This document shows positions 27,450-28,622 of a DNA stretch of 64,000 bases, piece by piece. The translations under genes were made by a program, and so were the position numbers. Source of the stretch: Escherichia phage 121/2022-2B; sequence record OR958571.1; one strand, 5' to 3'. Position 1 is the first letter of the stretch; each line of letters starts with the position of its first letter. The notes under the pieces are model-generated. The model did no database searches. It was not told the origin of the DNA and worked only from the letters and a program-made list of their open reading frames with translations.

Positions 27450-27614
27450 TTACTCTTCTTTTTCTTTAGATTCCTCTTTTTTCTTTTTAGGAATCTGTTC
27501 AGGACCTTTATTTACTACAGCACCTGACGTTGTTCCAGTAGAGATATTTTCAGGATTACCACCTGAATCTCCAGCAACCATATCTTCTTTAATAAATTCT
27601 TTATATGTTTTCAT
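27450..27614 (-). CDS. Small hydrophilic ORF (54 aa)
   Basis: ATG within a TAATATG junction inside a repeated segment. Confidence 0.3.
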   Translation of the reverse strand: MKTYKEFIKEDMVAGDSGGNPENISTGTTSGAVVNKGPEQIPKKKKEESKEKEE

Positions 27615-27660
27615 ATTAACCTCTATTCATAAAAGCATTAAAAATTTGGTCATCAATCGA
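27612..27660 (-). repeat. Direct repeat copy 1 (about 49 bp, gene tail plus junction)
   Basis: Near-identical to 27971..28019. Confidence 0.7.
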
Positions 27661-27915
27661 TGGAATAGCAACTTTTTCTGCATCATTTAGCAAATCATTA
27701 ATTTCATCAGATAGCATAACACATGTACCTTTATTTCCTGTAATTGTTACTGCACAATTACGAACGTTTTCTTTATTAAATTTTAGGTTAATATTTTCGT
27801 AATGAAAATCCTTTAATGCCGAATATATCTTTAAAATGAAATTGTCTTTTACTACAATAAACCCCAACCTCACTATTAAAACGTGGTTCATGGAAACTGT
27901 AATAAACCTTTTCAT
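27616..27915 (-). pseudogene. Possible degenerate partial duplicate of the downstream 215-aa gene (61.1 position)
   Basis: 99-aa ORF whose last 13 aa (SIDDQIFNAFMNRG) and 3' flank repeat those of the 215-aa gene; an overlapping 61-aa ORF (27788..27973) resembles its middle. Confidence 0.3.
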
Positions 27916-27970
27916 CTATAAAATCGTATGAAATTTTTTCCATTTTTAAATATGAAAATTCAGAACTATA

Positions 27971-28019
27971 CATATTAACCTTTATTCATAAAAGCATTAA
28001 AAATTTGATCGTCAATAGA
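27971..28019 (-). repeat. Direct repeat copy 2
   Basis: Near-identical to 27612..27660. Confidence 0.7.
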
Positions 28020-28622
28020 AACTTTTACTTTAGGCTGTTCTTCAAACGGTAATTCATATCCACATATTACAATTTTGTGATCGATACCAAAATACACAGA
28101 AGCAATATGATTAATATTATTTTCAGTAAAATCTAAATCAACATCAATATCTTTTTGACTAACGCTCAAAGGATAATTAATACGAATAATTCGATTATCT
28201 TTAACAAAGATTCCACCGACATACTCTGTGTTGCGTTTAAAGTTTACACGTTTCCTAAATGAAAAATATTCAGGTTCTTTATGAGCCCGACTCATAGGAC
28301 ACAATGAGTAGCTAGAATAAGAGATGTCAAATCCTACACCTTCAATATGAATATGAGCCAACGTGTCATGATTAAACCAATTATAATCATATGCCAAATC
28401 CATTATATTGTAATATGTGAAAGGCACCGGATTAACATCATGTGTTGTACCTTTAAAATCTGCCCAGGCAACGATTTCGTTATCTTTAACAATTACAAAA
28501 ATTACACCGATATGGTATCCATTATTATTTTCATTCGGCGTTATATTATAACATTGCGCATTAGGAAATTTACCATATTTAAACGGCGCGTTTTTGTGCA
28601 TGTAATAAATCATATTATTCAC
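27975..28622 (-). CDS. Hypothetical protein (215 aa), 61.2 position (possibly AdfA-like anti-DarT factor)
   Basis: Track ORF; naming by map position only. Confidence 0.6.
   Translation of the reverse strand: MNNMIYYMHKNAPFKYGKFPNAQCYNITPNENNNGYHIGVIFVIVKDNEIVAWADFKGTTHDVNPVPFTYYNIMDLAYDYNWFNHDTLAHIHIEGVGFDISYSSYSLCPMSRAHKEPEYFSFRKRVNFKRNTEYVGGIFVKDNRIIRINYPLSVSQKDIDVDLDFTENNINHIASVYFGIDHKIVICGYELPFEEQPKVKVSIDDQIFNAFMNKG

Follow-up and report, generated by a model that had tools for sequence, protein, structure and literature searches.

A supposed decayed duplicate beside adfA in a T4-like phage is most probably a conserved AdfA-family gene split by one extra G

AdfA (anti-DarT factor A; LeRoux et al. 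2022, as cited in PMC9391042 and PMC11825919) binds DarT1, and its residue 164 decides binding (PMC11257639, PMC11825919). Histidine at this position in RB69 numbering is the DarT1-neutralising allele (PMC11825919), and deletion of T4 AdfA itself gives no DarTG1 phenotype (PMC11257639). In T4, gene 61.2 is adfA and gene 61.4 is tifA, and the region that holds them is known as the anti-TA island (PMC9391042). Segmental duplications at short homologies occur in T4 phages within exactly this anti-toxin island (PMC9391042), where amplification of dmd-tifA by recombination has been described (Srikant et al. 2022, PMC9391042). In RB69, a frameshift in gene 30.3 (adfN), which encodes a NADAR glycohydrolase, has been confirmed experimentally (PMC11257639).

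Here we analyzed the island in the window, by which we mean the whole 64,000-nucleotide stretch from Escherichia phage 121/2022-2B (OR958571.1), part of a Tequatrovirus (T4-like) genome. The island lies on the minus strand between the helicase gene 41 and the primase gene 61 and contains dmd, tifA (61.4), sp, adfA (61.2), a 118-aa gene (referred to below as the short gene), and 61.1 (Table 1). An earlier note, made from the sequence alone, had rightly placed this segment in a region that holds anti-defense genes in T4, and the open reading frames of 215, 99, 61, and 54 aa that it listed all exist. It had taken the 99-aa and 61-aa frames for the decayed copy of the 215-aa gene that a partial tandem duplication would leave, or for a recombination scar. 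We favor a different interpretation, with a probability of about 0.85, in which the supposed decayed duplicate is a conserved AdfA-related gene of the T4 family that has been split by one extra G in this genome only.

Table 1. Coordinates of the features in and around the adfA to 61.1 interval of the window
Feature	Position	Strand	Description
sp (spackle, 61.3), upstream neighbor of adfA	28615..28908	minus	
adfA (anti-DarT factor A, T4 gene 61.2)	27975..28613	minus	212 aa from ATG
Single-domain AdfA-family gene (RB32ORF033c family, phrog_4122)	27616..27973	minus	358 nt here, frameshifted
61-aa ORF	27788..27973	minus	native N-terminal 36 residues, then 25 out-of-frame residues and a stop
99-aa ORF	27616..27915	minus	17 out-of-frame residues from an internal ATG, then native residues 37-118
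CCCC run (CCC in relatives)	27862..27865	plus	GGGG on the coding strand; frameshift at codon 37
Repeat copy 1	27612..27660	minus	last 14 codons of the short gene (SIDDQIFNAFMNRG), GAGG ribosome-binding site, TAA, ATG of 61.1
Repeat copy 2	27971..28019	minus	last 14 codons of adfA (SIDDQIFNAFMNKG), AAGG ribosome-binding site, TAA, ATG of the short gene
Gene 61.1	27450..27614	minus	54 aa, phrog_1823

The 215-aa frame, described previously as an intact gene, does exist as the longest reading (27975-28622, from a GTG at 28622), but the true start gives 212 aa according to relatives, in which the ATG at 28613 is annotated; this start was taken from the annotation in bov9_1, RB51, and KMB42. The product is matched over its full length by the Pfam family AdfA (PF23813; profile positions 1-211, E = 2.7e-133, 442.3 bits versus a cutoff of 27) and is assigned to phrog_3781. 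A histidine is aligned with residue 164 of RB69 AdfA (NNINHIAS in the window versus NNINRIAS in RB69). A sequence search of AdfA against the PDB gave no meaningful match. We also considered a tandem duplication inside AdfA by comparing its N-terminal and C-terminal halves, but the similarity was weak (BLASTP E = 0.04; hhalign probability, 45%) and the idea was not retained; at best, the N-terminal half would be a remote second copy of the C-terminal domain.

In relatives, the short gene is 357 nt long and encodes 118 aa. Alignment of the window with bov9_1, RB51, and ESh31 demonstrated that a single gene underlies the 61-aa and 99-aa ORFs and is split by one inserted base at 27862-27865, which interrupts the 118-aa frame that is translated intact in the relatives; the earlier suggestion that the downstream copy is frameshifted is thus confirmed. 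The repaired protein matched phrog_4122 over positions 1-118 of 118 (E = 1.4e-72) and matched Pfam AdfA above the gathering cutoff (34.4 bits versus 27), only at profile positions 113-211, and the copies of the protein in databases bear a precomputed PF23813 match. Direct comparison with AdfA by BLASTP gave 37% identity over about 100 residues, corresponding to AdfA residues 116-215 (E = 6e-11). The BLASTP and Pfam matches uphold the earlier proposal that the two genes are paralogous, but not the accompanying claim that the remainder of the 99-aa ORF is unrelated, as the protein can be aligned, from native Gly-37 onward, with AdfA over its C-terminal half. The short protein has a single domain and not the two-domain architecture of AdfA (~210 aa), and it has Asn, not His, at the aligned DarT1-specificity residue. 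The gene sits within the anti-toxin island, between sp and 61.1. As judged from these alignments, the short gene represents the AdfA family in single-domain form and is paralogous to the C-terminal half of AdfA, in which the residue that decides DarT1 binding in RB69 lies. By homology, the intact protein would most likely resemble AdfA in its action and inhibit a host toxin (a DarT variant, for example) by binding it stoichiometrically. The gene itself is already known, being catalogued as a hypothetical gene.

The short gene is widely conserved. A tblastn search with the short protein matched 332 phage records, 331 of them over at least 80% of its length, and the gene was full length and in a single frame in 60/60 of the matches listed. 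Values of dN/dS among relatives ranged from 0.07 to 0.32, and the gene is under purifying selection. In other T4-like genera, orthologs are found at the corresponding position, and the single-domain form is the sole member of the family there; in distant T4-like contigs, only the single-domain gene follows sp. In T2, the order is sp, 12 nt, and the short gene, yet T2 is counted in the literature as having no adfA homolog (PMC11825919). Because the single-domain form is the more widespread of the two, it may be the older form.

The two paralogs differ greatly at the DNA level outside their ends. Their bodies are identical at 116/264 nt (44%) and their tails at 38/42, and third codon positions are identical at 30/88 sites (34%) in the body versus 11/14 in the tail (Fisher p = 0.0026). 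DNA-level homology between the paralogs was not detected beyond 49 nt, which is not what is expected of a recent segmental duplication, and the low identity of the bodies and of their third positions indicates that the duplication is ancient. If the 3' part of the 215-aa gene had recently been duplicated in tandem and the copy had then decayed, with the 49 nt as its last survivor, adjacent direct paralogs with the same terminal 49 nt would be accounted for, and such an event has a precedent in the segmental duplications at short homologies seen in T4 in the same island (PMC9391042). We nevertheless consider this very improbable, given that the short gene is full length in every relative inspected, that purifying selection acts on it across hundreds of genomes with orthologs in other genera, that the bodies have diverged to saturation, that the one-base change is the sole lesion, and that the single-domain form is commoner and maybe older. 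The limitation of the DNA repeat to 49 bp and the presence of an intact conserved gene at this site in relatives go part of the way toward refuting the earlier note by the test that it had set itself, and its supposed decayed copy is instead an old, conserved gene with no change beyond the extra G.

With one G removed, the short gene of the window is identical to those of bov9_1 and KMB42, with no substitutions. As nothing else in the gene has changed, the extra G is either a very recent frameshift or an error in base calling. None of 292 records was identical to the window across 27780-27940, and the best matches were one base shorter. The 61-aa and 99-aa products had no exact match in 153 billion gene calls, a collection that does not include the source genome and in which the window AdfA was also without a match. 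Exact 33-34-mers of the GGGG and GGG variants were both unmatched in IMG/VR, which does not contain this sequence, so that the result is uninformative on the allele.

The extra G could have been introduced by sequencing or assembly, for example through a homopolymer or a modified-cytosine miscall, in which case the phage carries an intact 118-aa gene with nothing unusual about it. Such an error, to which we give somewhat less than even odds, fits the identity of the rest of the gene to bov9_1 and KMB42, the restriction of the GGGG allele to this record, and the position of the lesion within a C/G homopolymer. In T-even phages, cytosines carry hydroxymethyl and glucosyl modifications, by which some base-callers are known to be disturbed. 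However, in a comparison of the window with KMB42 over about 50 kb, which left aside a scrambled stretch near 57772-57811, all other uncompensated single-base indels were intergenic or within about 20 nt of the 3' end of a gene, and the assembly is therefore not riddled with single-base errors. At the end of nrdC, the sole 3'-end indel checked, the window reads a T4-like C terminus and KMB42 a longer variant. Natural single-base frameshifts are, moreover, documented in anti-defense genes of T-even phages, including RB69 gene 30.3 (adfN) (PMC11257639). If the sequence is correct, the extra G in the GGG run would shift the frame at codon 37 and create a null allele of the short gene, from which a 61-aa fragment and at most a poorly initiated 99-aa product would be made; the internal ATG of the 99-aa ORF has no Shine-Dalgarno sequence.

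Programmed +1 ribosomal frameshifting at GUU-GGG-G would restore the full-length protein and turn the split into a regulatory device. The GGG G run would let the P-site tRNA-Gly re-pair in the +1 frame, and it lies inside the 128 nt by which the 61-aa and 99-aa ORFs overlap. We find this scarcely credible, as the shifted arrangement is present in no relative examined, all of which are in frame with GGG. Inspection of the sequence also revealed neither a rare or stop codon after the site nor an upstream stimulator resembling a Shine-Dalgarno sequence, and there is no RNA structure signal near the junctions.

The paralogs end in a direct repeat, which the earlier note had described as a segment of about 49 bp that occurs twice, about 360 bp apart. 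Self-BLASTN of 27400-28700 recovered this pair with an E value of 6e-13 (49 nt, 45/49 identical [92%], start-to-start spacing of 359), with no other direct pair better than E about 0.1, and the match is therefore far beyond chance. Translation agrees with the description of each copy as a shared C-terminal tail, a stop, and a TAATATG junction: both encode SIDDQIFNAFMN(K/R)G followed by a TAA stop, and the junctions lie at 27612-27618 (copy 1) and 27971-27977 (copy 2). A third TAATATG junction, at 28611-28617, is formed by the sp stop and the adfA start. The last 13 nt of the repeat contain a Shine-Dalgarno sequence, the stop, and the start. No structure signal emerged when the two junctions were folded as RNA (z-scores, +0.4 and +1.1), and a scan for promoters and terminators found nothing tied to the repeat. 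The repeat is the 3' end common to both genes, consisting of a conserved tail and a gene junction, and is no fresh duplication scar. Gene 61.1 is translationally coupled to its upstream gene, and the Shine-Dalgarno sequence with the TAATATG stop/start overlap would serve, in each copy, to couple translation to the next gene. The homology of the repeat could also provide seamless break points for the gain or loss of cassettes.

The tail encoded by the repeat, DDQIFNAFM(N/K)R(G/D) (family form DDQIFNAFM-x-RG, DDQIFNAFMNRG), follows a linker of variable length and stays unchanged even in members of the family whose bodies are as little as 27% identical. It also ends the members of phrog_8539 (146 aa), a neighboring gene family that is otherwise unrelated and shares only this tail. 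Strong selection on the tail peptide keeps the repeat nearly identical. Whether such selection, together with that on the ribosome-binding and coupling signal, is the sole reason for the near-identity of the 49 nt, with neither conversion nor a cassette role, can be judged from several observations. The invariance of the peptide, the narrowing of synonymous choices by an AT-rich codon bias, the signals within the final 13 nt, and the ~91% identity of the RB69 and T4 adfA tails, which is similar to that of paralog tails within one genome, all agree with selection alone. In contrast, the two tails of PSD2001 have five lineage-specific states in common, and orthologs across genera have none; the same codon is used at paralog-conserved residues more often in the tail (9/12) than in the body (9/25; p = 0.038); D-D codon variants are shuffled between the paralogs in Pinarejo, phage 132, and the window; and adfA-61.1 junctions of the T4 type are seamless exactly at the repeat. 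On balance, we regard selection alone as an unlikely, though possible, full account. Within a genome, exchange between the tails by recombination or gene conversion probably also helps to keep the repeat alike, a case that is built on few sites and is confounded by codon bias and a possible ribosome-binding-site constraint.

The gene content of the interval varies as if by cassette, with adfA only in T4, the short gene only in T2, and both in the phage of the window. A direct adfA-61.1 junction was present in 167 records, and the other records matched only from the repeat boundary onward. The loss of the short gene from T4 by a crossover within the repeat is plausible. We had taken the T4 adfA tail (GAT GAC ... 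AGA) as a chimera proving such a crossover deletion, but withdrew it as proof because a GAT GAC ... R-type tail is also present on the adfA of RB69, where no short gene lies downstream, and because the D-D codons are shuffled in Pinarejo and phage 132. Gene bodies of at least three kinds bear the tail in the sp to 61.1 interval: AdfA with its two domains, the 118-aa family with one, and phrog_8539. Tentatively, the tail may be a portable module that docks all of these proteins onto a common partner and whose DNA, homogenized per genome, acts as a handle for in-frame swap, loss, or amplification of anti-defense cassettes that leaves translational coupling intact. A role for the tail as a docking motif for the gp45 sliding clamp was considered and rejected; gp43 ends in SLDFLFG, and the ends of gp43 and gp55 resemble SIDDQIF too weakly.

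For annotation, the consequence is that the locus should be labeled as a frameshifted AdfA-family gene and neither as two ORFs nor as a duplication scar. As stated, the finding changes little: the gene is hypothetical and already catalogued, and its one-base frameshift is private to this genome and may be a sequencing error. Of wider relevance, the AdfA family has a single-domain form that is more widespread at the locus than AdfA itself, and the presence of this form in phages reported to have no adfA bears on the phenotypes of counter-defense against DarTG and other toxins. If the tail is indeed a portable module, phages scored as being without adfA, such as T2, would keep a possibly active single-domain member. 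A 12-residue tail that is invariant on divergent or unrelated bodies offers a handle for finding binding partners and bears on cassette exchange in the island.

Among known systems, the PeSL mobile regulatory cassettes of T4-type phages, described by Arbiol et al. in 2010, are reportedly short, conserved gene-boundary sequences for which modular shuffling in hyperplastic regions was proposed. PeSLs are intergenic promoter/stem-loop elements, whereas the repeat described here is coding sequence with a coupling junction and carries no RNA structure signal. The dmd-tifA amplification takes place at this locus, T4 is known to use direct repeats as substrates of segmental amplification and deletion, and the presence or absence of cassettes at the locus differs among T4, T2, and RB51-type phages; however, the laboratory events used microhomologies of 2-10 bp, and here the shared sequence is a 49-nt coding tail and the events are inferred from natural variation. 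As a parallel to the frameshift described here, RB69 adfN is an anti-DarT gene inactivated or weakened by the insertion of one base in a natural isolate of a T-even phage, but it is a different gene of a different enzyme family (NADAR glycohydrolase). With respect to AdfA (PF23813), the 212-aa gene of the window is a full-length member with His at the equivalent of residue 164, and its frameshifted neighbor scores above the cutoff against the C-terminal half of the profile and has the invariant tail and the island in common with it, differing in having one domain (118 aa) and not two, and Asn in place of the His/Arg specificity residue. The closest counterparts are RB32ORF033c, RB51ORF035, and AR1 ar1_036 (phrog_4122, "similar to gp61.2"), which differ in being 357 nt long, versus 358 nt split into 61-aa and 99-aa ORFs in the window, and which are the same gene between 61.2 and 61.1, with 95-100% protein identity to the window copy once one G is removed.

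The earlier note had taken the two overlapping small ORFs between 61.2 (adfA) and 61.1 for remnants of a decayed duplicate copy. In relatives of the window, which is a Tequatrovirus genome, a single gene of 357 nt (118 aa) is annotated between 61.2 and 61.1, named RB32ORF033c in RB51 with the note 'similar to gp61.2'. Alignment of the coding strands gave GTTGGGGTTT in the window and GTTGGGTTT in bov9_1, RB51 and ESh31, the sole difference that matters; on the plus strand, the site of the extra base is a CCCC run at 27862-27865. With one G removed, the short gene of the window was identical to that of bov9_1 and KMB42 and matched phrog_4122 end to end (E = 1.4e-72). 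Therefore, the 61-aa and 99-aa ORFs belong to a single gene that carries one additional base: the former comprises native residues 1-36 and an out-of-frame extension, and the latter an out-of-frame leader, whose internal ATG lacks a Shine-Dalgarno sequence, followed by native residues 37-118.

Genes of the 41-61 interval in the window
Feature	Coordinates	Strand
41 helicase	29469-30896	minus
dmd	29228-29410	minus
61.4, now tifA	28969-29226	minus
sp	28615-28908	minus
61.2 (adfA)	27975-28613	minus
Two overlapping small ORFs	27616-27973	minus
61.1	27450-27614	minus
61 primase	26419-27447	minus

The intact 118-aa protein was found by tblastn in 332 phage records, in 331 of which at least 80% of its length was covered at one place; among the matches listed, 60 of 60 rows across the ranking were single-piece and full-length. 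The dN/dS of the short gene was 0.07 against RB51, 0.25 against T2 and 0.32 against Pinarejo. Gaprivervirus phages such as PSD2001 carry orthologs with 43-50% identity at the same site, and the distant members P0008 and P0010 immediately follow spackle in other T4-like contigs without any two-domain adfA; thus, the single-domain form is more widespread at the locus than two-domain adfA. These data contradict the claim of a decayed copy, and to derive the short gene from the 215-aa gene as a recent fragment likely puts the direction backwards.

No record among 292 was identical to the window across 27780-27940, and the best six of the 292 were 99.4% identical and one base shorter. Neither frameshift product was present among 153 billion recorded gene calls, from which the window's own AdfA was likewise absent, so that collection lacks the source genome. 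KMB42 was the best match to the window over a 24-kb comparison (98.1%), in which no record was identical. Over approximately 50 kb aligned with KMB42, the extra G was the sole mid-gene frameshifting indel among those mapped, a scrambled stretch near 57772-57811 being left out; the other uncompensated single-base indels were intergenic or no more than about 20 nt from the 3' end of a gene. Therefore, this private allele is a real mutation of very recent date or else an isolated error in base calling; we give the error a substantial chance, somewhat short of even odds. A natural one-base frameshift is documented in RB69 30.3 (adfN), another T-even anti-DarT gene (PMC11257639), so a real null allele of the short gene is plausible. 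It is very unlikely that programmed +1 frameshifting restores the product, because the gene is in frame in every relative examined. The sole gene-end indel inspected was that of nrdC, where a single base near the 3' end differs between KMB42 (44598-44620) and the window (about 54561): the KMB42 C terminus is longer and altered (...REYLNDARRN) and the window reads ...REYFK, presumably the T4 NrdC ending. Between the gene 47 homolog and a-gt, the window also carries about 600 nt that are inserted relative to KMB42. The 207-aa ORF there (44501-45124, minus strand) has a GIY-YIG nuclease domain of borderline score (21.4 bits versus a cutoff of 22.6; E = 3e-4) and probably encodes a Seg-like homing endonuclease.

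All of the ORFs named in the earlier note were present, and the minus-strand order from 41 to 61 agrees with the annotation of bov9_1, RB51, ESh31 and KMB42 and, the small ORFs excepted, with that of T4. The 215-aa ORF matches Pfam AdfA (anti-DarT factor A) over its full length (E = 2.7e-133); its start in relatives is the ATG at 28613, which yields 212 aa. Genes 61.2 and 61.4 are now adfA and tifA, in a stretch termed an anti-toxin-antitoxin island (PMC9391042). AdfA binds DarT1, and residue 164, His versus Arg, decides binding (PMC11257639, PMC11825919); at the aligned position, AdfA of the window has His and the short protein Asn. The 118-aa protein is 37% identical to AdfA residues 116-215 (E = 6e-11), so the remainder of the 99-aa ORF, called unrelated in the earlier note, is in fact related to the 215-aa protein. 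On the Pfam AdfA model it scored 34.4 bits (cutoff, 27) over profile positions 113-211 only; paralogy with adfA extends no further than the C-terminal domain. If the N-terminal half of AdfA is a second copy of this domain, it is a remote one (BLASTP E = 0.04; hhalign probability 45%, E = 2e-4). The family is very small and has only seven representatives among 1.84 billion proteins. The predicted structure of the short protein is a five-strand meander followed by helices, with low confidence at residues 100-118, and the model had no match in the PDB.

Three further observations concern this neighborhood. The window adfA has a mosaic structure: over its first ~300 nt, identity is 96-100% to RB69, of a different genus (Mosigvirus), and only 38-93% to T4, and over the remainder it is 77-88% to RB69 and 88-94% to T4. 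The breakpoint lies near the boundary of the protein's N- and C-terminal halves. Of the sigma-70-like promoter matches in the region, the best (29440-29468, minus strand; TTTACA, 17 nt, TATAGT, extended TG) is just upstream of dmd, consistent with the early promoter reported for dmd-tifA (PMC9391042). A 66-aa hydrophobic ORF (26222-26422) lies on the plus strand, opposite and between genes 56 and 61, with a 4-nt overlap with the primase 3' end; it is annotated in relatives as RB32ORF030w, similar to RB69ORF029w, and had no Pfam match.

Self-comparison of 27400-28700 bore out the reported ~49-bp repeat, a direct repeat of 49 nt (27612-27660 and 27971-28019; 45/49 identical, spacing 359 nt, E = 6e-13); no other same-strand pair was better than E ~0.1. 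As described from the sequence, both copies, read on the minus strand, encode SIDDQIFNAFMN(K/R)G and a TAA stop, with the ATG of the next gene one base on (TAATATG). A third such coupling junction joins the adfA ATG at 28613 to the sp stop codon. The last 13 nt of the repeat also hold the stop, the next start codon and the Shine-Dalgarno sequence, which reads GAGG ahead of 61.1 and AAGG ahead of the short gene; no RNA-structure signal was found at either junction. Over their last 14 codons, adfA and the short gene were identical at 38/42 nt and 11/14 third positions, versus 116/264 nt and 30/88 third positions, which is saturation, over the remainder (Fisher p = 0.0026 for third positions). 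This sharp edge arises because the tail peptide is conserved at the protein level: DDQIFNAFM-x-RG, preceded by a variable-length linker, is invariant even in family members with only 27% body identity. The tail also occurs in a third family: in PSD2001 (2056-2851), a 146-aa gene (phrog_8539) directly upstream adjoins the 117-aa short-gene ortholog, and both end SVDDQIFNAFMKR(D/G), with no other similarity detectable between the 146-aa body and the AdfA family. In vB_EcoM_G2540-3 (MK327944.1, ~730-745), an extra C within the adfA tail (GATGACCCAAATT versus GATGACCAAATT) frameshifts the last residues, the annotated product being 201 aa long; this indel, real or artefactual, is again in a homopolymer, within the same conserved tail.

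Comparison of relatives over the 61-61.2 interval revealed three arrangements. Both genes are present in the window, bov9_1, RB51 and Pinarejo; adfA alone, joined directly to 61.1, in T4 and 166 further records, with all others matching the T4 junction from the repeat boundary onward only; and the short gene alone in T2, 12 nt from sp. In T2 (AP018813.1, 2195-2857), the 118-aa AdfA-family gene follows a 12-nt remnant, TTAGAGGTTAGT, with a GAGG ribosome-binding site after sp. In all sampled adfA-only genomes, adfA carries the Arg tail codon found on the short gene, whereas adfA with the short gene downstream ends in Lys instead, the pattern expected from unequal crossover within the repeat. RB69 adfA, however, has an Arg-type tail without a short gene downstream, so the Arg tail may be ancestral. 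It is reasonable to infer that the short gene was deleted through the repeat, and in T4, experiments have shown recombination at short homologies within the same island (PMC9391042).

Where residues were conserved between the paralogs, the same codon was used at 9/12 tail versus 9/25 body positions (p = 0.038). The two tails of PSD2001 have five lineage-specific states in common (Val, CAG, TTC, AAG and CGA), and no tail site in that comparison grouped orthologs across genera instead. A synonymous GAT/GAC pair is shuffled between adfA and the short gene in Pinarejo, phage 132 and the window. Together, these small numbers suggest occasional gene conversion or recombination between tails within a genome; that selection alone, without conversion, accounts for their near-identity seems rather unlikely. 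Tails homogenized in this way may offer in-frame break points at which cassettes are gained or lost. By homology, the intact short protein would act like AdfA, binding a host toxin stoichiometrically and inhibiting it.

The short gene was already in databases, as RB32ORF033c since the RB-phage genomes, as phrog_4122 and in precomputed PF23813 hits, although full-text searching for 'RB32ORF033c' turned up no paper. The feature is therefore an already known gene with a trivial private lesion, and its remaining value lies in the apparently portable, invariant tail and a putative single-domain Adf-like protein. The published DarTG counter-defense account counts T2 as having no adfA homolog (PMC11825919), yet T2 keeps a member of the 118-aa family.
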